64,000 nucleotides of DNA from positions 157,537-221,536 of the forward strand of contig JAHJTG010000016.1 in the NCBI GenBank assembly GCA_018829965.1, written 5' to 3'. The stretch's first letter is position 1. Every line of letters begins with the position of its first letter. The notes under the pieces are model-generated. The model was given only the letters and a program-made list of their open reading frames with translations. It had not been told where the DNA came from and ran no database searches. Positions 11,938 to 64,000 of the stretch are shown one piece after another. The translations under genes and the position numbers were made by a program. Origin of the DNA: Patescibacteria group bacterium (GTDB lineage Bacteria; Patescibacteriota; Minisyncoccia; Minisyncoccales; Staskawiczbacteraceae).

Positions 11938-12007
11938 ATTTACCTCGACGGCGAGAATACCCCGTTCTTTAGATCGGAGGTGAAAAACGTGATTACGCCG
12001 ATAACAA

Positions 12008-13975: not shown

Positions 13976-14095
13976 ATATTTTTATTATCTTTTTATCCTA
14001 CCAAGAAATTACTCTCACTACAAGGTAATAATTTTTAGATATTTTCGTAATTCTCTTGCTAGCTGAAAAGATATTCCATGATTACCGTGATATAT

Positions 14096-27547: not shown

Positions 27548-28378
27548 TTATCTTTTTGAGAATTTTTCGGGATCATCGATTCCTTGATCCTTCATTAGTT
27601 TATTATTAATCTCCTCCACTACTTTATGGATTTTTAAATCAACACCTTGTTCATCTGCAAATTGGATTAAAGCTTTAATGTCTTTCGGCAAACATTTCTT
27701 GCCGTATCCCCTATAGTCTCCGTAATAAATATTTAAATGACTAGGGCCTATTCTTTTATCCATTGAAGCGCATTCTCTCACTTCGTCGTAGTCAATGCCG
27801 ACTGCCTTGCATAAATCGTACATTTGATTGCCAAAAATAACTTTTGTTGAAAGAAATGTATTGCCGAAATATTTAACCATCTCTGCTTCAGTCGCCCTAA
27901 TAATCTTTTCAAAGGGAGCTTTCGGCAAAATAGACAAAACTTTTTCAGCTGATTCACGGCTGGAATCTGTATAGCCGACTATTTGTCTATCCGGGTTTTC
28001 CATACATTCATCCGCTTTTTCTTCAATTAAAAATTCTGGATTGAACAAAAACTTATGCTGAGGATATTTTTGCTGAAATTTTTCCGTAGTGCCAAGTAAA
28101 ACAGTTGATTTAATCACTATTGTTTTATTTCCGGAGATACTTGAACAAGCGTCTTCAACATAAGATAAATCAAATCCTTTTTCCTTATCAAATGGGGTCG
28201 GGACACAGATAAAAATAATATCGGCTTGGTTCACTTCTTCAGTAGAGCCCTTATTTTTTCCATTGTCGTAAAAAAATACCTTATATCCTACTTTATCAAA
28301 ATATCTTTTTAACGCTCCGCCAATCATTCCTAGACCCATTATTCCTATTTTTAAATCTTTTAAATTTTTGTTCTTCAT
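27548..28378 (-). CDS. UDP-glucose/GDP-mannose dehydrogenase-family protein, short form lacking the C-terminal UDP-binding domain
   Basis: 276 aa. IGIMGLGMIGGAL NAD-binding loop and the catalytic-Cys motif GKKCLPKDIKAL (compare GGxCxxKD). The protein ends about 30 aa after it. Confidence 0.65.
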   Translation of the reverse strand: MKNKNLKDLKIGIMGLGMIGGALKRYFDKVGYKVFFYDNGKNKGSTEEVNQADIIFICVPTPFDKEKGFDLSYVEDACSSISGNKTIVIKSTVLLGTTEKFQQKYPQHKFLFNPEFLIEEKADECMENPDRQIVGYTDSSRESAEKVLSILPKAPFEKIIRATEAEMVKYFGNTFLSTKVIFGNQMYDLCKAVGIDYDEVRECASMDKRIGPSHLNIYYGDYRGYGKKCLPKDIKALIQFADEQGVDLKIHKVVEEINNKLMKDQGIDDPEKFSKR

Positions 28379-28458
28379 AATTATGAGCGAGGGAGGAAAG
28401 GAAAAACCTTTTTTACTTTCCGACCAAGCGATTAATTATATAGACTAAAAGTCTCTAT
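28379..28458 (-). promoter_or_regulatory. Conserved leader element, copy A (abuts ATG of 27548-28378)
   Basis: Gene-sense sequence: ATAGAGACTTTTAGTCTATATAATTAATCGCTTGGTCGGAAAGTAAAAAAGGTTTTTCCTTTCCTCCCTCGCTCATAATT, then ATG. Hairpin 1 pairs 28442-28446 with 28450-28454. Hairpin 2 pairs 28395-28400 with 28416-28421, plus an inner A/T stem. TATATAAT lies at 28435-28442. Confidence 0.75.
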
Positions 28459-28462
28459 AAAT

Positions 28463-29383
28463 TTATTTTTTAATTAAATTATGATTTTCAAACCATTCTT
28501 TAGTTTTTCCAACTCCAGTAGCAAAATCTGTCTTAGGCTGCCAATTCAAAAGCTTTTTAGCTAAGTTGATGTCTGCCTGGGTATGGAGAGGGTCACCTAA
28601 CCTTGGGGGCAGATATTGAACCGAACCGCCGATTAATTTGCTTAAATAATTGATCGAATAAGATTTCTTCTGCCCAATATTTATTATTTCTCCTCCTTTT
28701 ATCTTTTTGCTTTCCGCTGCTTTTATATTTGCATCTACTACATCATCTATATAGCAAAATGCCCTAGTCTGTTCCCCATCTCCAAAAATTGTTAATGGCT
28801 TATTCTGAACCCTTAATCTTAAAAATTTTCCCAAAACTAAACTATAATCAGAATCGAAATCAATTCTTGGCCCATAGACATTAAAATATCTTAAACAAAC
28901 TATCGGAACCTTATATAGCCCAACAAATAGTTTTGCAGTTTGCTCTCCAACAAACTTCTGTAGCCCATATGGGCTAAGAGGATTAGGAATCATATTCTCT
29001 TTTAGAGGAAACTTCTTTTGATCCCCATATATAGAAGAAGAGGAGGCGAAAATAATTCTTTTAACCCCTTCATCAATCGCCGCTTTAAAAACATTAATCG
29101 TACCCAAAATATTCACTTGAGATGTACCGACTGGATCCTTAATCGAAATCGGCACTCTCGGAATAGCAGCTAAGTGTAAAACATAGTCAACTCCTTGAAA
29201 GCAGGGCTTGATTTTGTTAAAATCACGAATATCTAATTGATAAAACTCTACCTTAGGATTCAAGTTTTCCTTCTTCCCAGTTGAAAGATTATCAATAACC
29301 ACTACTTGGTGGTTTTGTTTTATTAACTTATCAACGAGATGGCTGCCTATGAATCCAGCTCCGCCAGTAATTAAGTATTTCAT
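28463..29383 (-). CDS. NAD-dependent NDP-sugar epimerase/dehydratase (extended SDR)
   Basis: ITGGAGFIGSHL and the YGLQK (YxxxK) motif; 306 aa. Confidence 0.85.
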   Translation of the reverse strand: MKYLITGGAGFIGSHLVDKLIKQNHQVVVIDNLSTGKKENLNPKVEFYQLDIRDFNKIKPCFQGVDYVLHLAAIPRVPISIKDPVGTSQVNILGTINVFKAAIDEGVKRIIFASSSSIYGDQKKFPLKENMIPNPLSPYGLQKFVGEQTAKLFVGLYKVPIVCLRYFNVYGPRIDFDSDYSLVLGKFLRLRVQNKPLTIFGDGEQTRAFCYIDDVVDANIKAAESKKIKGGEIINIGQKKSYSINYLSKLIGGSVQYLPPRLGDPLHTQADINLAKKLLNWQPKTDFATGVGKTKEWFENHNLIKK

Positions 29384-31823: not shown

Positions 31824-32936
31824 TTAAGCTCCTATAATTTTTAATAAAGAATCGCAAACAAAATTAACATCTTTTTTAGTTAGATTTGATGCCGAAGAAA
31901 GACAAATACCTCTTTTTTCCACTTTTCCTGCTTCAGGATTATTAAATCTTCTTTCTTGCTCAAAAACCGGAAATAAGCTCATTCTTGGAAATCCTGACCT
32001 GCAATGAATATTAAGATCTTTCAGTTGTTTTAATACCTCGTCTCGCGGAACTGAGATACTGTCTTCTAAAAGAATGGACGAATAGCAATAATTGCTTTTA
32101 CAATTTTCTTTCTCCTTTATAATCTTTATTCCCTTTACACTTTGAAGTCTCTCGTAATACCAATCAAACATCTGTCTCTTCTTTGCAACCAATTCATCAA
32201 TTCTTTCAACTTGAGCCAGAGCAAGCGCCGCTGTCAAGTTTGCTATCGTATACTGATACCCTATTTGATCTGACCAAAAAACTGCTTTAGAATCAGTGCG
32301 ACCCATTGTCGCAAACAACAGCGCTTTCTTATAAAGCTCTTCATTATCTGTTACGAGAATACCTCCTTCTCCACTTACAGTAATTTTTGCGCCCTGAAAA
32401 CTAAAACATCCGAAGTCGCCGAAAGTGCCAACTTTTTGGCCTTTAAATCTAGAGCCGAGGGCTGGAGCAGCGTCTTCAATCACCCGTAAATTATACTCTT
32501 TTGCAATCTCCATAATTTCATCCATCTGAGCAGGATGACCATAAGAATGAACGAGCATAATGGCTTTTGTTTTGTCGGTAATAGCCTTTCTTATTGCTTT
32601 TGGATCAATACACCAGGAATCTGGATCTATATCAACAAAAACAGGAGTTGCTCCGCTGTAAGCAATCGCATAACCAGTAGCAATCCAGCTAAAATCAGTA
32701 CAAATTACTTCGTCTCCTTTTTTCAGCCCTAATGCCATTACTGCCAGATGTAAAGCCATCGTACAACAATGGGTGGCAATCGCATATTTAACGCCTAAAT
32801 ACTCCGGAACTTTCTGTTCAAGCTTTTTTGCGTGCTTATCATAGGTCTCATACCAGCCGTTTTTAACAGCATCCATTACATAATCGATTTCCTTTTGAGT
32901 AATACAGGGACCGGCAAAGCTTATTTTCTTATTCAT
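31824..32936 (-). CDS. DegT/DnrJ/EryC1/StrS-family NDP-sugar aminotransferase
   Basis: 370 aa. FGDFGCFSFQGAKITVSGEGG (active-site Lys) and overall DegT architecture. Confidence 0.85.
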   Translation of the reverse strand: MNKKISFAGPCITQKEIDYVMDAVKNGWYETYDKHAKKLEQKVPEYLGVKYAIATHCCTMALHLAVMALGLKKGDEVICTDFSWIATGYAIAYSGATPVFVDIDPDSWCIDPKAIRKAITDKTKAIMLVHSYGHPAQMDEIMEIAKEYNLRVIEDAAPALGSRFKGQKVGTFGDFGCFSFQGAKITVSGEGGILVTDNEELYKKALLFATMGRTDSKAVFWSDQIGYQYTIANLTAALALAQVERIDELVAKKRQMFDWYYERLQSVKGIKIIKEKENCKSNYCYSSILLEDSISVPRDEVLKQLKDLNIHCRSGFPRMSLFPVFEQERRFNNPEAGKVEKRGICLSSASNLTKKDVNFVCDSLLKIIGA

Positions 32937-33017
32937 AATTATGAGCGAGGAAGATATGAAAATTTATTTTCATATCGACCGAGTGATTAATTATATAAAT
33001 TACGAAGTAATTTCTAT
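32937..33017 (-). promoter_or_regulatory. Conserved leader element, copy B (abuts ATG of 31824-32936; overlaps stop codon of 33014-34174)
   Basis: Gene-sense sequence: ATAGAAATTACTTCGTAATTTATATAATTAATCACTCGGTCGATATGAAAATAAATTTTCATATCTTCCTCGCTCATAATT, then ATG. Hairpin 1 pairs 32997-33003 with 33007-33013. Hairpin 2 pairs 32953-32962 with 32967-32976. TATATAAT lies at 32990-32997. Confidence 0.75.
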
Positions 33018-34174
33018 TTTTTTAATGTTAATAATTTTTCATACGCCTTATTTAATTCTTCGTCTTTTTTTGCGAAACAAAATCTTAATAAATTTTCTCC
33101 GCTTTCATCATGGTAAAAAGCGCTCCCTGGCACGCTTGCAACGCCGGTCTTTTTTAATAGATACATCGCTTTCTCTTTACTTGTTTTACCTGGCAGACAG
33201 CTTGCATCAGCAAAAACGTAATAAGCTCCATGCGAAACAAATGGCGTAAGCCCCACTTTTTTCAAAACAGAGCAGATTTTATCTCGCTTTAACTTATATT
33301 CCGCGCAGATTGACTGATAAAATTCATCGGGTAATTCATTAATTCCTTTAGCAACTCCCATTTGAAGAGGCGCGGGTCCGCAGACATATATCAAATCATT
33401 GACATAACCAATCATAGTCGCCCATTTTTCGTCACAAACGCAATAACCGATTCTCCACCCAGTGATGCTGAATGCTTTTGAATAGCCTGATATAGTAATC
33501 GTTCTATCCTGAATATTTGATAACACTCCTGGGCTTATATGCTTTAAACCATCATAAACAAAGTATTCATATATCTCATCGGTAAAGATAAACAAATCGT
33601 GGCGGATGCAGAAATCTGCTATCTTTTTTAATTCTTCTTCGGAGAAAACCTTGCCCGAAGGATTGGCAGGGGTGTTAATTATTATCCCTTTGGTTTTTTT
33701 AGTTACTGATTTTTCTAATTCGTCTATACTGAATGTCCAATCCGGCGGATTTAACCTAACATATATTGGTTCTATTCCAACTGCTAATAAGGTATTAACA
33801 TGATATCCGTAGTAGGGTTCAAAAACAATAACCTCGTCACCAGAGTTAAGTAGCGCTAAACAGGCTGAATAAAATGCTCCCGTGGCTCCGCAAGAAACAA
33901 TGATATTTTTCTCCGGATCCACGCGCATATTATTGTGCTTCAACATTTTTGAAGCGATTGAATTTCTCAGTTCAGGCAGACCATCATATCTCGTATATTG
34001 GTTTATGCCAGCATCTATCGCATCTTTAGCTCCTTTTTTCACTGGTAAAGGAACCTCTAAATCACAAAAACCCTGAGACAAATTAATCCCGCCTACCTTG
34101 ACGCATTCAATGGACATATTCCTGATTTCAGACTGAACAATTTTTTTAGAACGATCGCTTATAGATAATTTCAT
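33014..34174 (-). CDS. Class I/II PLP aminotransferase (YbdL/kynurenine-aminotransferase-like)
   Basis: 386 aa. NLSQGFCDLEVP and SGYSKAFSITGWRIGY (SxxK...GxR). Confidence 0.85.
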   Translation of the reverse strand: MKLSISDRSKKIVQSEIRNMSIECVKVGGINLSQGFCDLEVPLPVKKGAKDAIDAGINQYTRYDGLPELRNSIASKMLKHNNMRVDPEKNIIVSCGATGAFYSACLALLNSGDEVIVFEPYYGYHVNTLLAVGIEPIYVRLNPPDWTFSIDELEKSVTKKTKGIIINTPANPSGKVFSEEELKKIADFCIRHDLFIFTDEIYEYFVYDGLKHISPGVLSNIQDRTITISGYSKAFSITGWRIGYCVCDEKWATMIGYVNDLIYVCGPAPLQMGVAKGINELPDEFYQSICAEYKLKRDKICSVLKKVGLTPFVSHGAYYVFADASCLPGKTSKEKAMYLLKKTGVASVPGSAFYHDESGENLLRFCFAKKDEELNKAYEKLLTLKK

Positions 34175-45790: not shown

Positions 45791-47101
45791 TTATTTTAAA
45801 AGGGAACTACTTTGCTCTTGATATTCAGTTTTCCAACTTAATCGTGGTTGAACGACCCCCATTAAAATCTTCCTGTTATGTTCTTTGTGCATGTTTTTTT
45901 TATCAATAATTTCAAAAGATAAAATCTGGTCTTCATATACATGAGCAAAAGAATCAATAACTCCCGCTAGATTTCCTATGATTATATTAATAAAATAATG
46001 CCCCTCTTTCAGCAAATCGCCTGGTATTCGGCATACACAACGGAACAGACCTTCTGGACAAGGACGGTCATACCAGTGATCAATCTCCGAACAAACTGAA
46101 GGAAGATTGGTCGCCGATAAAACATAAACGCCCTCATTATTAACCAAACGGATACACGGCAATAGCTTTGCTCCTTTCAGAAAATTCCAATAAGTTAATT
46201 CAATATAAAAATCTTCGCTTACCTCTAACTTAGAAGCTGGTCTTTTTTCTTTTGAGAGAACGCGCACGCTTTTAAGCTTTACGTATGGGTCCCCCGGCGC
46301 CTCAATAGGGTTTTCCCAATTGATTTCTGGTCCTATTCCTTTTCTTAAACCGGTATATTTTTCAATGACATCTGGTGTAGGACCTTCCATTATTAATCTG
46401 CCTTTTTCTAAAAGAATTGACCGATTGCAAAGCCTTGCCACGCTGTCCATATTATGAGAGACAAACAATATTGTTCTTCCCTCTTGGCTAACCTTGCTCA
46501 TTTTTTCCAAACATTTCTTTTGAAACTTGAAATCGCCAACTGCTAAAACTTCGTCTACAAATAAAACCTCGGGTTCAAGATGGGCCGCTACTGCAAACGC
46601 TAATTTAACATACATGCCACTTGAATATCTTTTGACGGGAGTATCTAAAAACTCTCCGATTTCCGAAAATTTCACAATTTCGTCAAATTTTGAATCAATT
46701 TCTTTTTTTGTCATTCCTAAAATTGCGCCGCTAAGATAGATATTCTCTCTGCCCTTCAATTCCGGATGAAAGCCAGTCCCTACTTCCAATAAACTATTTA
46801 TACGACCCCGAATTATGGCCCGGCCTTCAGTGGGAGGAGTAATTTTAGACAGCACTTTCAAAAGGGTAGTTTTACCAGCGCCATTTCTACCAATAACTCC
46901 TATTACTTCACCTTTCTTTACTGAAAAACTGACATCTTTTAACGCCCAAAAATCTTTTTTACTTGTCTTTTCCCCCTTCAACCATTGGATTGGTTTTTTT
47001 GCCAATTTAATCATCTCCTCTCTTAATGAATAATATCTTTCCTTCTCTTCCCCTATTTTATAGTTCTTTGATAAATTGTGAACTTCTATAATTTTTTCCA
47101 T
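45791..47101 (-). CDS. wzt: Polysaccharide ABC exporter ATP-binding protein with C-terminal beta-sandwich (Wzt_C-like) domain
   Basis: 436 aa. Walker A GRNGAGKTTLLK, signature YSSGMYVKLAFAVA, Walker B LFVDEVLAVGD. An extra ~180 aa follows the NBD. Confidence 0.9.
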   Translation of the reverse strand: MEKIIEVHNLSKNYKIGEEKERYYSLREEMIKLAKKPIQWLKGEKTSKKDFWALKDVSFSVKKGEVIGVIGRNGAGKTTLLKVLSKITPPTEGRAIIRGRINSLLEVGTGFHPELKGRENIYLSGAILGMTKKEIDSKFDEIVKFSEIGEFLDTPVKRYSSGMYVKLAFAVAAHLEPEVLFVDEVLAVGDFKFQKKCLEKMSKVSQEGRTILFVSHNMDSVARLCNRSILLEKGRLIMEGPTPDVIEKYTGLRKGIGPEINWENPIEAPGDPYVKLKSVRVLSKEKRPASKLEVSEDFYIELTYWNFLKGAKLLPCIRLVNNEGVYVLSATNLPSVCSEIDHWYDRPCPEGLFRCVCRIPGDLLKEGHYFINIIIGNLAGVIDSFAHVYEDQILSFEIIDKKNMHKEHNRKILMGVVQPRLSWKTEYQEQSSSLLK

Positions 47102-47186
47102 AATTATAAACGAGGGAGGAATGAAAAAATTTGTTTTTGCATTCCGACCGAGTGATTGATTATATAAATGGCTTTGTCATTTCTAT
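47102..47186 (-). promoter_or_regulatory. Conserved leader element, copy C (abuts ATG of wzt)
   Basis: Gene-sense sequence: ATAGAAATGACAAAGCCATTTATATAATCAATCACTCGGTCGGAATGCAAAAACAAATTTTTTCATTCCTCCCTCGTTTATAATT, then ATG. Hairpin 1 pairs 47166-47170 with 47178-47182. Hairpin 2 pairs 47118-47123 with 47140-47145, plus an inner A/T stem. TATATAAT lies at 47159-47166. Confidence 0.75.
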
Positions 47187-47198
47187 TTTTATTCGAAA

Positions 47199-48017
47199 TT
47201 AGATTATGTCAGCGAAAAATCTCTCGGATTTCTTAAAATACAATATTCCTAAAAAGAATAATACAATTGATATTAAAGCGGAAAAACCAAAGGCAAACCA
47301 ATTAATTGTTCCAACTCCTAATAATCCTGTTCGTATTGTCTCAATTACTCCACTTATTGGATTGAGATACAACAACCATTGATATTTTCCCAAAATACTT
47401 ACTGGGTAGATAACCGGAGTAAGAAAAAGCAAAAGCTGGATAAAAAATGGCAAGGCATAACGAACATCGCGATATTTAACATTAATAGCTGAAAAAACAA
47501 GACTAAGTCCAGAAATGCCAAAGAAAGTTATAAGAAGAGATGGAATAATAAGTAAAAGTCCGGTTAAGGTCGGAAAAAAATGATAGTAAAACATCAAACC
47601 CACAAAAACTATAAAAGAGAATACAAAATCAAGGAGAAAAACAAAGGTAGAGGCAAGCGGTATAATGATTCTTGGAAAATGAACTTTTTGGATAACATTT
47701 TGTTCTGCAATCAAACTATTACTTGCTGTTAAAAGAGAATTAGCGAAATAATTCCAGAAAAGAAGGCCGGAATAGACAAAAATTGGATAAGGAATCTCTC
47801 CACTTGAAATGCCAGCCAACTTACCGAAAAATATAGAGAAAATTATCATTGTCAAAAACGGCTGTAAAACCGCCCAAGCAATGCCTATTAATGTTTGCTT
47901 GTAGCGAACTTTAACATCTCTCCAAGACAAGAAATAAAAAAGCTCTCTGAAGTGCCAGATTTCTTTCAGGTCTAAATTAAAAAATCCTTTATTGGGTTTT
48001 ATTATTATTTCAACCAT
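47199..48017 (-). CDS. wzm: ABC-2 type polysaccharide exporter permease
   Basis: 272 aa with six hydrophobic helices. N-terminal ELFYFLSWRDVKVRYKQTLIGIAWAVLQP is typical of Wzm/TagG/KpsM permeases. Confidence 0.85.
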   Translation of the reverse strand: MVEIIIKPNKGFFNLDLKEIWHFRELFYFLSWRDVKVRYKQTLIGIAWAVLQPFLTMIIFSIFFGKLAGISSGEIPYPIFVYSGLLFWNYFANSLLTASNSLIAEQNVIQKVHFPRIIIPLASTFVFLLDFVFSFIVFVGLMFYYHFFPTLTGLLLIIPSLLITFFGISGLSLVFSAINVKYRDVRYALPFFIQLLLFLTPVIYPVSILGKYQWLLYLNPISGVIETIRTGLLGVGTINWFAFGFSALISIVLFFLGILYFKKSERFFADII

Positions 48018-58600: not shown

Positions 58601-58641
58601 ACAATAACATTAAACCCCTCTCGACGTAGTGTCAAGAGGGG
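58601..58641 (-). terminator. Putative intrinsic terminator after 58666-59232
   Basis: In gene sense, the CCCCTCT/AGAGGGG stem (58635-58641 pairs with 58615-58621) has a 13-nt loop that contains GAC/GTC pairing. It is followed by TTTAATGTTATTGT running into the HTH start codon. Confidence 0.5.
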
Positions 58642-58665
58642 TCAAAAGGTATCAATTGCCTATTA

Positions 58666-59232
58666 CTAGATTCTATTGAATGCGATGTTTTTTTCCCTTA
58701 TTTTAAATCTCTTTTTAATCCAGACTCCTATTAATTCATAGCTCCCGAAAAAGACGGTCGCGTAAAATAAATTTCCCAATAATGTATTTCTGAAAAATGG
58801 CAGAGCCATAAAATAACACTGGATTATTCCAGAAATAGTTTTGGCATACCAAGGGGAAAAAGCCCAAACTGCAAAATTAGTGATAAGGAAAAATAGAACA
58901 GCGGATAAAATCGCGCTCCCCCCTACTGTATACCACTTCTTATGTCCCTTTAACCAGAAACCAAGAATAACGTATAAAAGAAAGCTACCATAAACTGCAA
59001 TCATTAATTTCGGGTCATAATAGCCGATAAATAGATCGCTGATTGCCATTACTGCTAACGGCAGAAATAATGCTATCTTTCTTGAGAAATAGACTCCTCC
59101 AAATAAAGCAATGACGGCTATGGGGGTGAAATTAGGAGCATGGGGAATAAGCCTCAAGCTGACTCCGATTATAATAAAAACTAAAGCAATAGTGAAATTT
59201 AATGTTTTCCCTTTTTCAGTTAATTTTGACAT
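58666..59232 (-). CDS. Polytopic membrane protein (ECF S-component-like/DUF6580-like putative vitamin transporter)
   Basis: 188 aa with 5-6 hydrophobic helices. The RLIPHAPNFTPIAVIALFGG motif is one I associate with a putative-transporter family. The assignment is tentative. Confidence 0.5.
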   Translation of the reverse strand: MSKLTEKGKTLNFTIALVFIIIGVSLRLIPHAPNFTPIAVIALFGGVYFSRKIALFLPLAVMAISDLFIGYYDPKLMIAVYGSFLLYVILGFWLKGHKKWYTVGGSAILSAVLFFLITNFAVWAFSPWYAKTISGIIQCYFMALPFFRNTLLGNLFYATVFFGSYELIGVWIKKRFKIREKNIAFNRI

Positions 59233-59261
59233 ATTACTATAATATATAAAATTATTAATAA

Positions 59262-60404
59262 TTAAAAGGTTGATTTTTCAAATTTAAACTCTACTTTGTC
59301 CCCAGATTTTATAATCATTTTATCCGCGGAAATCATAGGCATTTCTCCATTAATGTAATATAGCCAATATTTTCCATCCTGTCCATTTTCTTTATCCCCA
59401 ATTGCTTCAATAAATATTCCAATATCATAATTCTTTGTTTTAAGCGCTAAGTATAATTTTTTAGCCTCCTCCTCTAATAAATCAAAAGCGGTCATTCCTT
59501 CTTTAAATTCGGCAACAGAGGTCTTTGGATTCTCTTCCCCATAATCAATTACCAATACTGCTTCTTTCCCTACTGTTTCCAGGGCAACATTATTTTCTTT
59601 AACGTTAGCCTGCCAAAAATCACTAGAAAGTATCAACCAACTGCCAATAATAACAATTATTACCGCTCCAATTATGATGTAAATAAATTTCTTATTAACA
59701 AAATTTCTATTAATAATTTTTTTCTTAATAAAATATAAAATCGCTAATAATAAGATTATCAAAATTACCAATATGACTGTTAACCATATATCGTTCAAGA
59801 TATTCATCATTCCTGTCAATAAACCAGCTTGGGCTATAATCTCATAATTAATTTGATTGGACGTAGATTCTTCTTGCTCCTCTTGTTGTAAAATTGTTTC
59901 TTGCTCTTGCTGTTCAACATCCTGTTGAATATCTTTAGGTACAATTATATTAACAGCAGTTATGTTATATGCACCACCTTCTACATTAAAAGGAATATCT
60001 GTGCCCGCCCCTATAACATTAACATCTGTTAAAAATAATTTTCCTTGACCGGCTTGAACTCCTTCAGCAGACACCGAAAGAATATTTTGAACAGCAACTA
60101 CGCACTTTGGAATCCCTAAAACAAAACTGGGGCTAGCGCAAGTTGGAGTAATCATGGCCATAACACCACTATCTGTAATAATATTTTGGCAAGATAAATT
60201 ATCAAAGTTTAAAGTACCTTTTACAACACAAATATCGTTATTTACCGAATCTATTTGGATAGAAATGCTAAAAACGCTACCAGCTGTGCTATTAAGCGAT
60301 GCTGGTAAAACAGACAATGTTGAGCTATCTGCATAAACCATTTGGCTCATTCCAAATATTACTACGATAGTTAATAATACTAATAAAGTTATTTTTTTCA
60401 TCAT
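59262..60404 (-). CDS. Surface protein: signal peptide, cohesin-like beta-sandwich, Q/E-rich linker, two TM helices, C-terminal DUF4430 (transcobalamin-like beta domain)
   Basis: 380 aa. MMKKITLLVLLTIVVIFGMSQMVYA; LSVLPASLNSTAGSVFSISIQIDSVNNDICVVKGTLNFDNL (cohesin-like); QQDVEQQEQETILQQEEQEE. C-terminal AFDLLEE...IGIFIEAIGDKENGQDGKYWLYYINGEMPMISADKMIIKSGDKVEFKF is DUF4430-like. Confidence 0.6.
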   Translation of the reverse strand: MMKKITLLVLLTIVVIFGMSQMVYADSSTLSVLPASLNSTAGSVFSISIQIDSVNNDICVVKGTLNFDNLSCQNIITDSGVMAMITPTCASPSFVLGIPKCVVAVQNILSVSAEGVQAGQGKLFLTDVNVIGAGTDIPFNVEGGAYNITAVNIIVPKDIQQDVEQQEQETILQQEEQEESTSNQINYEIIAQAGLLTGMMNILNDIWLTVILVILIILLLAILYFIKKKIINRNFVNKKFIYIIIGAVIIVIIGSWLILSSDFWQANVKENNVALETVGKEAVLVIDYGEENPKTSVAEFKEGMTAFDLLEEEAKKLYLALKTKNYDIGIFIEAIGDKENGQDGKYWLYYINGEMPMISADKMIIKSGDKVEFKFEKSTF

Positions 60405-60405
60405 A

Positions 60406-60438
60406 ATTTTATTTACATTTTATTTACATTTTATTTAC
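60406..60438. repeat. Perfect 11-bp x3 tandem repeat filling the intergenic gap
   Basis: attttatttac at 60406-60416, 60417-60427 and 60428-60438. The third copy contains the stop codon (60435-60437) of the upstream gene. The first copy ends 1 nt from the ATG at 60404. Confidence 0.85.
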
Positions 60439-61739
60439 TTATCCCAATTAAACATCAAAAGGGCAAAATCGTATTCGTTAATTGCGCCGTCGTGATTTAA
60501 ATCAGCCAAACCTAAACCAGGTTGGCCCCAATCTTCTCTTAATACGGCGAAATCATATTCGTTAATAATATTATCGCTATTTATATCGCCGCTTTTTTTA
60601 GCTGACTGCGGAGGATCAACAGCAAAACTAACTGAAATGGTGTGGTCAGCATCAATATTATTAAAAGTATAACTAGTTACTGTGCCGACCGAAACGCCAT
60701 CTACTAAAACATCCTCAACGTGGTAACCGGTGTCCGGACTAATAGTGAAAGCTTCGTCTGAAGTAGCGCCAACCCTCACCATTCCCGAAAAGAAAATTAA
60801 GCCATGCTCACTAGCAGACGCATTAATAACATACATTCTTACTCCGCCACCACTGCTATCTATTGAGACAGAATATTTGCCTACTGGATAAAACTTTTGA
60901 GACAAAGCAATCACCGCGTAAGCAGTCGAACTTGGAAAAGGCCAATACTTTTCAAAAGAACCGTCGGATATTTGTAAGGACTTCAAATTATCAATAGGAT
61001 TTTTACCATTTTTTGACCAATCAGAGGGATTTTGACCTAATTTATAAATAGCCGAAATAACCCAAGCATCGGAAGAAGCATTTGAATCAGTCCCCCAAGG
61101 ACTTACAGGGTCATAAGGAAACCCGCCATCAGAGTTTTGGCATGATTTTAAATAATCAACAGCTTTTATAATTACTGGGTCGCTTGATGAAGTTCCAGAT
61201 TCCAATAAAGCCATAATAGCTGCTGCTGTATCGTCAACATCACTACCCCACCCAATACCAAAAGGAAATCCGCCATCAGGATTTTGGTTTGTCAAAATAA
61301 AATTTTTAGAATCCTGAATAATTTGACTGCTTGAATCTTCACCGGCTGAAACCAAAGCTAAAATTCCCCAAAAATCATCGTTTAAATAATTCGTAGAACC
61401 AATCTGATTATTTTGATAAAAACTCTCCAACTGGCTAACAAAATCAATATCGCCAAAAGTTCTTGGATTCTCGCCGGCAGCAGTAATAGCTAAAATTATT
61501 TTTTCGTAATCAGTGGCTGAGCTACCACTAAGAGTTTTTAGATAATTTAGGTCCGTATCTGTTTTTCCACCCGCGATTAAACCCATAGTTATCCAAGGGT
61601 CGGAAGATTGAAGCTCAAGATAATTAATAGCTTTATCAATTTCTGATTGATTTTCTGCTTGAACTTCAGAAAAAGCGGTGAATCCGATTAAACCGACTGA
61701 AATTGCGACTAAAGAAACGACTAAAATTATTTTTTTCAT
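60435..61739 (-). CDS. Secreted alpha/alpha-toroid (prenyltransferase/squalene-oxidase repeat) protein with beta-repeat domain and C-terminal dockerin-like repeats
   Basis: QNPDGGFPFG, QNSDGGFPYD and QISDGSFEKY (QW-type repeats). C-terminal GDINSDNIINEYDFAVL...ADLNHDGAINEYDFALL (two dockerin-like Ca-binding repeats). Start set at MKKIILVVSLVAISVG (61739); the 13 extra codons in the track (to 61778) lie inside leader copy D. Confidence 0.7.
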   Translation of the reverse strand: MKKIILVVSLVAISVGLIGFTAFSEVQAENQSEIDKAINYLELQSSDPWITMGLIAGGKTDTDLNYLKTLSGSSATDYEKIILAITAAGENPRTFGDIDFVSQLESFYQNNQIGSTNYLNDDFWGILALVSAGEDSSSQIIQDSKNFILTNQNPDGGFPFGIGWGSDVDDTAAAIMALLESGTSSSDPVIIKAVDYLKSCQNSDGGFPYDPVSPWGTDSNASSDAWVISAIYKLGQNPSDWSKNGKNPIDNLKSLQISDGSFEKYWPFPSSTAYAVIALSQKFYPVGKYSVSIDSSGGGVRMYVINASASEHGLIFFSGMVRVGATSDEAFTISPDTGYHVEDVLVDGVSVGTVTSYTFNNIDADHTISVSFAVDPPQSAKKSGDINSDNIINEYDFAVLREDWGQPGLGLADLNHDGAINEYDFALLMFNWDK

Positions 61740-61821
61740 AATTACGAATGAGGGAAGAAAATGATAATTTATTATCATTTTCCGACCGAATAAAGTGATT
61801 ATATAGGTTCGTAACCTCTAT
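61740..61821 (-). promoter_or_regulatory. Conserved leader element, copy D (abuts ATG at 61739)
   Basis: Gene-sense sequence: ATAGAGGTTACGAACCTATATAATCACTTTATTCGGTCGGAAAATGATAATAAATTATCATTTTCTTCCCTCATTCGTAATT, then ATG. Hairpin 1 pairs 61805-61809 with 61813-61817. Hairpin 2 pairs 61757-61767 with 61772-61782. TATATAAT lies at 61798-61805. Confidence 0.75.
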
Positions 61822-61822
61822 T

Positions 61823-61844
61823 AAAAAATCCCCTTCGAGGGGGA
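61823..61844 (-). terminator. Putative intrinsic terminator
   Basis: In gene sense, TCCCC-CTCGAA-GGGGA (61844-61829) is followed by TTTTTT (61828-61823). Confidence 0.55.
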
Positions 61845-62005
61845 AAAATTCATCTAATCCAAAGATTAGATTGACCTTTTTCTTTGCTCGAAGAAATTAA
61901 AGTTAATTATATGGTATTCTGGCTTAGGAATTCTTTTAAAAATTCCGTTACAGTTGCGGCACAGCCCCGGATTTGAACCGGTGTTTCCCATTTATTTTAA
62001 AACGC
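61823..62005 (-). other. Candidate stand-alone small transcription unit: structured sRNA or 41-aa ORF (61866-61991)
   Basis: Bounded by a TTGACA-18 nt-TAGTAT promoter-like site and the terminator at 61823-61844. Three further hairpins lie at 61961-61986, 61927-61946 and 61853-61870. The ORF reads MGNTGSNPGLCRNCNGIFKRIPKPEYHIINFNFFEQRKRSI. Confidence 0.3.
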
Positions 62006-62013
62006 TTTTATAT

Positions 62014-62043
62014 ATACTATCTTTTTCTCAGCAAGGTTGTCAA
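62014..62043 (-). promoter_or_regulatory. Putative sigma70-type promoter (TTGACA, 18-nt spacer, TAGTAT)
   Basis: In gene sense, TTGACA lies at 62043-62038 and TAGTAT at 62019-62014. No experimental support. Confidence 0.3.
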
Positions 62044-62085: not shown

Positions 62086-64000
62086 ATGCAAGACAATCTC
62101 CAAAGTAAGTTTTATTGGGTTTACTTAATCGGATTCTTTTTGATTGTATCTCTTCCTTTTTGGGCAATTCCTCCATTATTGCATCCTCCTGCCTGGGGAA
62201 AAACCATTGTTCTCAGAATTATTCTTTCCTGCTTGTTTTTCTTTTTTATTTACCAAGTTCTTTATAATAAGAATACTTTTGTTTTCGAAAAACTGAAGTC
62301 AAAACCAGTAAAAATAATATTGGGCATCTTGATAACTCTGCTAGTTCTTTTCTTGCTCGCAACCATTTTCTCCCAAGATGCCTATTTCAGTTTTTGGGGA
62401 AACCCATATCGCGCCGGCGGGTTTTTAAATTTTGCTTTTTATATAACTTTTGCGATTTTTGTATTTTTAATTCTAAAACCCCGCCACTGGAAATTGCTTT
62501 GGAACTTTTCTCTAGGGATAGCTTTATTAATATCACTTATTGCTTTACTCCAGCAATTTAACGCTTTTAAGGAATTTCTTGTGTCTTACAGCGCCAGATT
62601 ACCGGCAACCTTAGGTTCGGCAATTTTTTTAGCCATCTACCTTTCTTTTTTCGTATTTTTAAGCTTGTCTTTTGCGATTTTAGAGAAAAATAGAAAGAAA
62701 AAAATTCTCTATCTCCTTTCTTTTTTGATAATCGTTTTTGTTATTTTTCTTTCTGGCACAAGAGCTGTTTTTTTAGGGATAGCGCTGGCTTTTTTATATT
62801 TCATTTTATTTTACCCCGTTAGAAAATTGCCACCGCAAACCTCTAGTCCTCAAAACTATGAACAAGTTCCGCAAAATTCTAACGGGACAAAACAAGCACG
62901 GGGCATAAAAATTTTAAAGATTATAACACTGGCATTATTAGTTATTGGTATTTCAGGTATTTATTATTTAAACACCCCCTCTGAAAAAATTTCTTCCCAC
63001 CCTCTTGTAGTTAAAAACCAGGCTTTAACTACTATCGTCTCTAGAATTAAAATTAAACCATCCTTGGAAGACCCCCGTTTTGCTTATTGGAAAATGACGC
63101 TTCCAGCTATAAAAGAAAAACCTCTTTTAGGATACGGGCCTGAAAACTTCTCAATCGCTTTTGATAAATACTACGACCCTTCCCTGCCCTATATGGGTTA
63201 TGAAGTAGCCAAAGGTTGGACAGATAAAGCCCATGGCTTTATTTTTGAAACAGCAATTACTGCCGGAATTCCGGCTTTAATTGTTTATCTCTCACTTTTT
63301 GCCGTATTATTATGGCAACTCCAAAAATTAAAAAATCCGCATAAATCCGAGGAAATCAGCATAAATCAGCGTCCTATAATTATTCATAGCGTCCAAGCAA
63401 CTATTATTGCCTATTTTATAAGTATATTTTTAGGTTTTAACACCTTTGATACTTATCTCATATTCTTTCTCTTAGTAGGATACTGTTTATATTTAATTTT
63501 TTCTTCGAAAAAAGAAATCCTACTGAATCAAAATGAGAATAAACCAACTATTTCTTTACTATATAAATGGAGAAAAACTATAATCATTTTTCTTTTTATC
63601 TTTCTTTTATTATTTATCTGGCTCTATAATTTAAAACCTCTCCTTATCAACAAAGAACTAAATTGGGCCGAGTATTATTCAACAACTGGAAAATGCCAAC
63701 AAGCAATTGATAAGATGGAAAAAGTTTTGCCTTCCCACAGCATCATCAACCATTATGTGCTCCTGCAATATTCAGAAGTTCTTAAAGAATGCCAAATATT
63801 AAATCCGGAAGAAGAAACTAAATTTATCCAGAAATCGATTCAAGTTTTAGAAGAAGCCGCAAAATTGAGGCCGACCTATACTAGAACTTGGCTATTATTG
63901 GGAAGCTACTCTAATTTTGCCGTTGAAAATAATCCGAACCTAAAAAGCGAAGAAAAAAATGAACTTCTCTTAAAAGCCGACTCTTATTTTACAAAAGCTT
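62086..64000 (+). CDS. O-antigen ligase/polymerase-like (Wzy_C) polytopic membrane protein with C-terminal TPR-like region; 3' end beyond window
   Basis: Not in the track because it is open to the window edge. Hand translation from the ATG at 62086 gives MQDNLQSKFYWVYLIGFFLIVSLPFWAIPPLL... with many hydrophobic helices. It contains LSGTRAVFLGIALAF and PLLGYGPENF (Wzy_C-like). The last ~120 aa are soluble and helical (NKELNWAEYYSTTGKCQQAIDKMEKVL...). The in-frame stop at 62077-62079 fixes 62086 as the first ATG. Confidence 0.7.
   Translation, partial: MQDNLQSKFYWVYLIGFFLIVSLPFWAIPPLLHPPAWGKTIVLRIILSCLFFFFIYQVLYNKNTFVFEKLKSKPVKIILGILITLLVLFLLATIFSQDAYFSFWGNPYRAGGFLNFAFYITFAIFVFLILKPRHWKLLWNFSLGIALLISLIALLQQFNAFKEFLVSYSARLPATLGSAIFLAIYLSFFVFLSLSFAILEKNRKKKILYLLSFLIIVFVIFLSGTRAVFLGIALAFLYFILFYPVRKLPPQTSSPQNYEQVPQNSNGTKQARGIKILKIITLALLVIGISGIYYLNTPSEKISSHPLVVKNQALTTIVSRIKIKPSLEDPRFAYWKMTLPAIKEKPLLGYGPENFSIAFDKYYDPSLPYMGYEVAKGWTDKAHGFIFETAITAGIPALIVYLSLFAVLLWQLQKLKNPHKSEEISINQRPIIIHSVQATIIAYFISIFLGFNTFDTYLIFFLLVGYCLYLIFSSKKEILLNQNENKPTISLLYKWRKTIIIFLFIFLLLFIWLYNLKPLLINKELNWAEYYSTTGKCQQAIDKMEKVLPSHSIINHYVLLQYSEVLKECQILNPEEETKFIQKSIQVLEEAAKLRPTYTRTWLLLGSYSNFAVENNPNLKSEEKNELLLKADSYFTKA

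Follow-up and report, generated by a model that had tools for sequence, protein, structure and literature searches.

Palindromic repeats seated on start codons in a Staskawiczbacteraceae glycan locus, probable members of an undescribed family of interspersed elements in Patescibacteria

A repeated element in a glycan-biosynthesis locus

The DNA analysed here is a 64,000-nt stretch of contig JAHJTG010000016.1 from a Patescibacteria group bacterium of the Staskawiczbacteraceae; this whole stretch is called the window. Most of it is a minus-strand array of about 60 kb of glycan-biosynthesis genes, encoding NeuB, DegT aminotransferases, epimerases, methyltransferases, B12-radical-SAM enzymes, glycosyltransferases and Wzm/Wzt. 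Upstream of the array, on the same strand, lies an operon that resembles B12-uptake systems. The GC skew of the plus strand is negative throughout the window, and therefore all window genes lie on the leading strand. Shine-Dalgarno sequences are nearly absent from these genes, which have A/T-rich leaders, and AAATTATG recurs as the start context of the minus-strand genes. Within this arrangement an element of about 82 nt occurs four times (copies A to D, Table 1), and it is the subject of this study. The minus-strand gene sense of these four copies is referred to as the window orientation.

An earlier note on this DNA had placed the four copies at these coordinates, all on the minus strand and each abutting an ATG. 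The positions hold, and the last base of each copy is the base before an ATG. A covariance model (CM) search of the window returns these four copies only, which also confirms that the long minus-strand gaps at 11938-12007, 13976-14095 and 58601-58665 lack the element. Aligned on the minus strand, the copies span about 85 nt with a mean column identity of 77%. A 22-nt core, TATATAATYAATCRCTYGGTCG, is present in copies A-C and in none of 100 shuffles, and the 3' block YCCTCRYTYRTAATTATG matches exactly in all four copies. Both hairpins reported by the note are present, and their sequence differs among the copies while complementarity is kept. The note did not recognise a known family, and in Rfam 15 we find no match to any copy at the gathering threshold or at E <= 10, nor any to the element in related loci. 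The sole Rfam match in the window is the cobalamin riboswitch upstream of copy D.

The copies are spaced 4.5-14.6 kb apart with many genes between them. Their positions are not natural sub-operon boundaries. The genes wzm and wzt are usually neighbours and co-transcribed, and the site of copy C, between them, is for this reason not such a boundary. At copy B, the TAG stop of the upstream aminotransferase gene falls within the ATAGAA of the element.

Table 1. The four copies of the element in the window, their neighbours and parts, and the riboswitch features upstream of copy D.
Feature	Position	Strand	Score or source	Upstream neighbour	Downstream neighbour	ATAGAR	Hairpin 1	Outer-helix 5' arm	Hairpin 2	Outer-helix 3' arm
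Copy A	28379..28458	-	CM 90.5 bits	NAD-epimerase gene, 28463-29383	UDP-glucose-dehydrogenase-like gene, 27548-28378	ATAGAG, 28453-28458	28442-28454	ATAATTA, 28433-28439	28395-28421	TAATTAT, 28377-28383 (final two bases are the AT of ATG)
Copy B	32937..33017	-	CM 84.2 bits	class I/II aminotransferase gene, 33014-34174	DegT aminotransferase gene, 31824-32936		32997-33013	32988-32994	32953-32976	32935-32941
Copy C	47102..47186	-	CM 96.8 bits	wzm, 47199-48017	wzt, 45791-47101		47166-47182	ATAATCA, 47157-47163	47118-47145	47100-47106
Copy D	61740..61821	-	CM 75.1 bits	cobalamin riboswitch terminator	first gene of the B12-uptake-like operon (true ATG 61739, not 61778)		61805-61817	ATAATCA, 61796-61802	61757-61782	61738-61744
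Cobalamin riboswitch aptamer (upstream of copy D, not part of the element)	61892..62033	-	Rfam
Intrinsic terminator of the riboswitch (CCCCT-CGA-AGGGG + ATTTTTT)	61823..61843	-	read from sequence		copy D, directly after

Structure of the element

For the structure, the four window copies were aligned with 27 copies from public genomes, and the consensus fold was calculated with RNAalifold. The unit is about 83 nt long and consists of hairpin 1 and an imperfect rod of about 65 nt. In the gene sense of the window it reads ATAGAR - hairpin 1 - (C/T)TATAT - AATTA(N) - loop - RY - UY - GG - UC - hairpin 2 - UY - CC - UC - RY - loop - (N)UAAUU - AUG. The rod is built from an outer helix, AUAAUUA(N)/(N)UAAUUAU, a 2-bp RY/RY helix, a GG/CC helix and hairpin 2, and the final two bases of the outer helix are the AU of AUG. 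The blocks that the earlier note took to be conserved and single-stranded are thus not unpaired, as RNAalifold pairs them with one another. In addition, ATAGA pairs with TATAT and lengthens hairpin 1, which reaches a perfect 13 bp at locus L008. The helices are separated by two 2x2 mismatch loops that are never Watson-Crick. In gene sense these loops are U/C against U/C, and on the other strand, below called the purine-loop strand, they are tandem G.A.

Most copies were collected by patterns that fix ATAATT, TYGGT, CYTCRYTY and AATTAT and leave the covarying positions, hairpin 2 and the flanks free. Covariation was tested on 106 distinct sequences, with 3' partners slid by 1-3 columns and 500 shuffles as controls. 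Standard pairs fill 92.8% of the cells, compared with 40-59% in the slid controls. Double-sided changes occur in 146 cells, compared with 61 +/- 5.5 in the shuffles, and none of the 500 shuffles is as high. The claim of a selected, structured element with covarying stems is clearly supported by these changes. The first RY pair is GC in 66 sequences and AU in 26, and the second is UA in 65 and CG in 23. Pair 7 of the outer helix is AU in 64 and GC in 29, and pair 8 is CG in 56 and UA in 12. Three divergent copies have both arms rewritten together, e.g. ATTAACACG...CGTGTTAAT. Hairpin 2 varies from 17 to 42 nt, with one outlier of 74 nt, and from AU-rich to GC-rich (GTCCCGC/GCGGGAC), and it remains complementary.

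Arms that co-vary would also be expected if one protein read both of them, i.e. if the element were a double-stranded DNA binding site (an operator or nucleoid-protein site) with two inverted half-sites. We consider this highly improbable. The half-sites would be about 55 bp apart, hairpin 2 is free in sequence and length but still complementary, and the conserved positions between the helices are asymmetric, with pyrimidines on one strand and purines on the other.

Two simpler identities were rejected. An intrinsic terminator is ruled out by the C-rich sequence, without a U-run, that follows hairpin 2, and separate canonical terminators lie beside some copies. A small plus-strand open reading frame (ORF) is ruled out as it is not conserved among the copies.

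Parts of the unit also occur alone. At the rplW-rplB junction of L008 hairpin 1 occurs by itself, with no rod, as TATAGAG-hairpin-CTATATAAT-14 nt-ATG. The rplV-rpsC junction of L007 carries a minimal ATAGAAAATTATAATTATG. The element therefore seems to be modular or to leave remnants.

A large family without a functional theme

Further copies, which the earlier note proposed to look for in relatives, are numerous. A scan with the exact pattern, using one genome per species, gives 27 loci. All are in metagenome-assembled genomes (MAGs) of Patescibacteria, several of them named Candidatus Staskawiczbacteria, and one MAG carries seven of the 27 on different contigs. A looser pattern gives at least 117 metagenomic loci. 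In total 166 copies, 154 of them unique, are confirmed by the CM in Patescibacteria MAGs and metagenomes. Homologues of a window protein are found in Staskawicz-, Nealson-, Colwell-, Jorgensen-, Falkow- and Liptonbacteria. Viral contigs contain two pattern matches, neither of which is confirmed by the CM at E <= 0.001.

The genes after the element were identified by tblastn for the ribosomal protein (r-protein) operon set and by sequence inspection. They include rplB, rplC, rplD, rplP, rplV, rplM, rpsC, rpsS, rpsK, tuf, dnaA, glyA and smpB, and also pnp, proS, pheT, atpA/D/F, hpf, pilins and pilus ATPases. No functional theme unites them, and there is no regulon. Some copies adjoin a 16S gene, tRNA genes or a truncated tRNA, and head-to-tail tandem copies exist at several loci. 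The start codon overlaps the outer helix in the register of the window in 55 of the 154 copies, and in about 30 more a start lies within 35 nt. However, 49 of the 154 have no same-strand ORF within 150 nt. Of the copies classed by their flanking ORFs, 34 run in the same direction as both ORFs and 19 in the direction opposite to both, and the arrangement is divergent at 15 and convergent at 9.

Two loci beside RNA genes are of separate interest. At L026 (5900-6112), a 5' tRNA half, ending in the anticodon loop CTTATAA, leads straight into the element, and a complete tRNA-Ile(TAT) with a different acceptor stem lies 20 nt beyond it. Here a tRNA gene may have been disrupted by the insertion and then replaced. 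At L015/L109 (1051-1146), a copy that lacks the hairpin-1 stem is on the strand opposite to a 16S rRNA gene, at a distance of about 10 nt from the mature 5' end, and its purine-loop strand would therefore belong to the pre-16S leader.

The earlier note read the element as a structured leader of the first gene of each sub-operon. Such an element would be a cis-acting mRNA leader, riboswitch-like or a protein-bound translational switch, in which the outer helix occludes the AUG and the extension of hairpin 1 is the alternative fold. The strong covariation agrees with such a role, as does the inclusion of the AU of AUG in the outer helix. Further, TATATAAT can pair either with the upstream ATAGA or with the downstream TAATTAT, giving mutually exclusive folds. 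The common register at 55 start codons is also as expected, and all nine copies inside r-protein operons have the window orientation. Nevertheless, we regard the leader as quite improbable. The element precedes genes that are not related to each other (r-proteins, EF-Tu, DnaA, ATP synthase, tRNA genes, 16S), it is seen in both orientations, and 19 copies are antisense to both neighbours and 49 of 154 have no same-strand ORF within 150 nt. The occupancy of orthologous junctions and the choice of strand, both described below, count against it as well.

Insertion of whole units at start codons

In the S10/spc operon the occupancy is patchy. The element precedes rplB in two genomes and rplC, rplD and rplP in one each. 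Of the multi-copy genomes, one has it before rpsS and rplV and another before tuf, rpsS, rplV and rpsC. In two genomes the operon has no copy. Most orthologous junctions are thus empty, which is difficult to reconcile with a leader of these genes.

Comparison with orthologous sites shows how copies C and D are seated. The wzt orthologues form a series of graded identity. With the element, as in the window and in an 83%-identical relative, wzm and wzt are separated by 97 and 100 nt, respectively. In seven orthologues (62-79% identity), none of which has the element, the gap is 3-35 nt. The empty sites read ...TAA ttttttaatttaaaa directly before ATGgaaaaa, with the junction TAAttttttaatttaaaa/ATG. 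The filled sites read ...TAA tttcgaataaaa, then the element (ATAGAA...TATAATT), then ATGgaaaaa. For copy D, the terminator U-tract meets the ATG directly (gggatttttta/ATGaaaaag) in two orthologues (69% and 65% identity), while the window and the relative L157 (71%) carry ATAGAGG...GTAATT at that point. At both sites hairpin 1 and the rod evidently entered as one unit, immediately before the A of the native start codon, and the two copies are lineage-specific insertions. Filled and empty sites reveal no target-site duplication at either copy, only a 2-nt ambiguity of AT.

Other comparisons point in the same direction. L157 has the element at two junctions that are empty in the window, and two near-identical strains, with flanks 96% identical, differ by exactly one unit of 79 nt. 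A search for recent mobility, in the form of near-identical copies with unrelated flanks, gave hardly anything but single loci that had been assembled twice, along with tandem duplicates and one polymorphism by a unit indel. A TAATTA target-site duplication, as suggested by L007 compared with L008, is ruled out by the empty wzm-wzt sites, which have no TAATTA. The appearance of a duplication arises because TAATTA is its own complement.

The sequence following the element is not random. After AATT/AT, the third flank base is A in 73 copies, G in 62, T in 18 and never C. At the fourth base 141 of 153 copies have a purine, and this holds as well for copies away from start codons (ATAA, ATAG, ATTG). 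The preferred flank is therefore AT(A/G/T)(A/G), where the AT itself is set by the search pattern and selection against disruptive sites may contribute. Target choice, selection or both could produce this preference. Gene starts with ATGA or ATGG, as is usual for Met-Lys/Asn/Glu in an AT-rich genome, are the commonest sites with this flank at which an insertion does no harm. The preference would explain both the abutment on ATG and the orientation relative to the gene.

Promoter use and the B12 riboswitch locus

Both outer arms are -10-like hexamers that face inward. When the copy is in the opposite orientation, with the purine-loop strand facing the next gene, 11 of 34 copies carry TGn ahead of the (T/C)ATAAT arm (p = 2e-6). 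The sequence at L059 is TTGACC-17-CATAAT. Such copies often sit behind the terminator of the upstream gene. At L035 only the element and about 10 nt lie between a bidirectional terminator and the gene. We infer that in this orientation the outer arm has been recruited as an extended -10 promoter. At the trmD-tRNA locus the 3' arm of the element adjoins the -35 of the tRNA promoter. Copies in the window orientation lack a -35, have TGn no more often than by chance (2/51 and 3/52), and are not called by a promoter scan.

It could be asked if the element as a whole is a mobile promoter or expression cassette that spreads by giving a gene its own -10 (TATATAAT), a transcript-stabilising 5' hairpin and a good start context. 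Mobile promoters, reportedly a form of promoter propagation in prokaryotes (Matus-Garcia and co-workers, 2012, are said to have described them), resemble the element in that one upstream sequence abuts the start codons of unrelated genes. The inward-facing hexamers, the TGn of the opposite-orientation copies and their position after terminators are all in line with this explanation. However, the element lacks a promoter signature in the window orientation and is also found inverted and beside RNA genes. Neither the rod nor the strand-specific wobble bias described below would be explained. Copy D provides another argument. The window and L157 share its site, have an identical hairpin 2, and both keep a high-scoring B12 riboswitch upstream. 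A constitutive start at copy D would bypass the riboswitch, but the riboswitch and its terminator are retained in both lineages (71% identity of the downstream protein), and therefore copy D should not be a strong constitutive promoter. A mobile promoter is for these reasons an unlikely explanation of the family.

Copy D also affects the annotation of the gene that follows. The conserved start of the first B12-operon gene is the ATG abutting the element, but hairpin 2 contains an ATG and gene callers therefore misplace the start. The mechanical ORF call in the window (61778 instead of the true 61739) and the public gene call in L157 (about 2040 instead of 2001; 451 instead of 434 aa) both begin within hairpin 2.

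The folded strand

The two strands of the element are not equivalent. Mismatches on the gene-sense strand are A.C in 116 cases and G.U in 58 (p = 1.3e-5), whereas a bias introduced by the CM should be in favour of G.U. All orientation classes show the excess of A.C, among them the copies co-oriented with the next gene (25 A.C against 13 G.U), and so does the outer helix alone (26 against 10). Further, the purine-loop strand folds more stably in 138 of 154 copies (-19.9 compared with -15.4 kcal/mol). Known strand biases of deamination would push the opposite way for leading-strand genes. The strand under pairing constraint is evidently the purine-loop strand, which is the plus strand in the window and antisense to its genes. 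This again speaks against an mRNA leader, which should tolerate G.U and not A.C at least in the co-oriented copies.

A small antisense RNA gene on the purine-loop strand would account for the better folding and the wobble tolerance of that strand. The (C/T)ATAAT arm would be its promoter, the stem with the GA loops its body, and hairpin 1 with a U-run from the A-rich upstream flank its terminator. In copies B and C, hairpin 1 is followed on that strand by CTATTTTT, and all sense copies have a CCUCCCUC to which the GAGGGAGG block would be complementary. Still, the arm has neither a -35 nor TGn in this orientation class, and copies A, D and many others lack the U-run. The outer helix is as biased as the rest, yet its 5' arm, if used as a -10, would stay untranscribed. 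We therefore consider an antisense RNA gene very improbable. More generally, the outer helix is hard to explain as RNA because opposite-orientation copies use its 5' arm as the -10, upstream of the transcript, and a single-stranded DNA form would therefore be favoured.

Relation to known repeat families

The earlier note had named a match to a described REP or MITE (miniature inverted-repeat transposable element) family as evidence against a new element. We find no such match, but the element does behave like that class. REP/REPIN elements, which are mobilised by RAYT (Y1 HUH) transposases, are likewise short, extragenic, imperfect palindromes that occur many times per genome within and between operons. 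Their long hairpin keeps its pairing by compensatory change, which implies folding as a single strand, and a short motif lies beside the hairpin, GTAG in REP and ATAG/CTAT here. The anatomy is different: the element has ATAGAR and no GTAG, and it consists of a small hairpin and a long rod with two tandem G.A loops in place of an inverted REP doublet. Insertion exactly at start codons is not a known trait of REP, the host phylum is another one, and no RAYT gene was found for the element in about 1 Mb of sampled loci.

The non-autonomous elements derived from IS200/IS605 (PATEs) share with the element two subterminal hairpins, the lack of strict terminal inverted repeats and of target duplication, strand specificity and tandem copies. 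They insert 3' of a short sequence on one strand, for which Y-H-A-T may be the counterpart here. In contrast, the hairpin of the element is much longer than IS608-type ends, and no TnpA is found in the sampled DNA.

Correia (NEMIS) elements of Neisseria and ERIC elements of enterobacteria are palindromic repeats of about 100 nt near genes, co-transcribed and with long hairpins. Their ends can serve as promoters, and their effects depend on orientation. However, there is no sequence similarity, and it is the flank preference that sets our element on the start codon. Correia duplicates a TA target and has 26-bp inverted ends, while the element shows no duplication at the two sites examined. TA-targeting MITEs differ in the same way, as there is no TA at the junction where copy C is absent.

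Two other kinds of structured array were rejected. An integron attC site would have RYYYAAC...GTTRRRY cores, but the cores here are ATAATTA/TAATTAT, and the copies are dispersed over contigs without an array of single-gene cassettes. TIGR arrays lie beside a Tas gene and have variable spacers of 8-12 nt flanked by CCA/UG boxes (PMC12045711). The occurrence in the candidate phyla radiation (CPR), the hairpin units and the tandem-purine box motifs are similar (PMC12045711), but TIGR is ruled out on anatomy: copies of the element are scattered, their loops are not variable spacers, and no Tas (Nop-domain) gene lies beside them.

A probable mobile repeat family

The four copies in the window are probably members of a large family of small palindromic repeats, so far undescribed, which are non-autonomous and interspersed in the genomes of Parcubacteria-type Patescibacteria and are similar to REP/REPIN or to IS200/IS605-derived MITEs. 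The dispersed copies, patchy occupancy, indels of whole units, tandems, lack of duplication, preferred flank on one strand and strand-specific folding all fit such a family. No such fit is seen for a gene-specific leader or a regulon, for a terminator, or for an attC site or TIGR array. In the searched literature on repeats, palindromes, intergenic regions and leaderless or Shine-Dalgarno starts of Patescibacteria and CPR we found no description of the element. It is best filed as a new family within a known class of repeats, in a phylum without described repeats of that kind, and its unusual trait is the exact seating on start codons.

We suggest that the form in which the element moves, or has moved, is a single strand of DNA, folded and acted on by an enzyme that recognises hairpins, as for REP/REPIN with RAYT or for IS200/IS605 MITEs. 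On the purine-loop strand it would then be placed 3' of Y-H-A-T, with CTAT as its own far end. The window copies would be passengers, co-transcribed in a long glycan operon and in the mRNA of the B12 riboswitch. In these mRNAs the rod could pair the AU of AUG and place hairpins between the cistrons, and effects on translation start or on mRNA processing and stability in the window are plausible.

Several observations weigh against a family of mobile repeats. No transposase or RAYT-like gene was found in about 1 Mb of sampled loci of 4-15 kb, and a tblastn search of these loci with an approximate IS200 TnpA query has a best E of 0.34. It is because no transposase was found in the sampled loci that the mechanism of movement is one we infer. 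A full-length parent was sought as half-elements flanking a coding insert, and only drop-outs of the regular expression were found. The copies inside one genome are not near-identical and no recent burst is seen. The four window copies by themselves show no clear difference in folding energy between the strands. The invariance of ATAATT, TYGGT, CYTCRYTY and AATTAT is partly by construction, because the collecting patterns fixed them. Finally, some copies are kept better than pure selfishness would explain: hairpin 1 of copy D is GGTT/AACC in the window and GGCC/GGCC in L157, a compensatory change, and at the orthologous trmD-tRNA locus the element is 94-98% identical while the coding flanks are about 75%. 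Such compensatory upkeep and high conservation suggest host-level selection or gene conversion beyond mobility. Host-level roles are therefore likely for at least some copies, be it as promoter -10, as 5' or intercistronic hairpins or by occlusion of the AUG.

A bolder version of mobility can be speculated upon, which we put forward tentatively and think is rather less likely to be true than not. The element would be the first interspersed mobile-repeat family to be described for CPR/Patescibacteria, a single-stranded DNA element that homes to start codons, is recognised through its tandem-G.A rod, inserts 3' of Y-H-A-T (the complement of ATGA/ATGG) and rewires 5' ends genome-wide, which would imply an undescribed hairpin-guided enzyme, HUH-type or other, in these reduced genomes. 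Such an element would decouple r-protein cistrons, separate riboswitches from their genes and donate -10 promoters when reversed.

CPR bacteria have tiny genomes that are thought to be poor in repetitive DNA. An abundant structured repeat on start codons, even in the S10 operon and behind a B12 riboswitch, is a recurrent, unannotated feature of gene starts in CPR. It already misleads gene callers, as in the window and in L157, and it offers a natural marker of strain-level variation. If the single-strand mechanism is true, it points to an uncharacterised mobilising enzyme. For the window, the four elements should not be read as signals of operon structure.

Other features of the window and related loci

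The B12-regulated operon at 58666-62041 (minus strand) begins with a sigma-70-like promoter (TTGACA at about 62036-62041), the cobalamin riboswitch and the terminator. Its first gene encodes a lipoprotein with an alpha/alpha-toroid (SQHop_cyclase/prenyltransferase-like) domain and a dockerin, and later genes encode a DUF4430 protein and a DUF6580 membrane protein. From its domains the operon looks like a transcobalamin-like system for B12 capture and uptake. It is kept with an AdoCbl-II-type riboswitch in the relatives L157-L159.

Upstream of an 82-aa HTH_17 gene, the gap at 58601-58665 (minus strand) reads TTGACA-17 nt-TAATGT-6 nt-ATG, which looks leaderless. The -35 lies within a CCCCTC...GAGGGG palindrome, and because the whole arrangement is conserved in L157, the palindrome suggests a putative autoregulated operator. 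In L157 an antisense copy of the element lies just upstream of this arrangement.

The UDP-glucose/GDP-mannose dehydrogenase homologue after copy A (27548-28378, minus strand) has 276 aa, with the N-terminal and central domains and without the C-terminal UDP-binding domain, and may be truncated or split. At the other end, a long hydrophobic ORF (62090-64000, plus strand) runs past the end of the window. In the relative L158, the neighbouring gene is Wzy_C (O-antigen ligase/polymerase-like).

A second, unrelated palindromic family is also present in intergenic regions of the fetched loci, where its core has 12 matches (0 in the window). It reads CCCCGCCCTCTATG...(variable)...GCTTAGAGGGCGGGG, followed by ATATTATTCAYTTCRTTCATAAT(T)ATG, and is found at rpsC-rplP and rpsJ-rplC of L008, rpsS-rplV of L007 and rplW-rplB of L039. 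It has the pyrimidine-rich tail ...TTCATTCATAAT-ATG in common with the element studied here.

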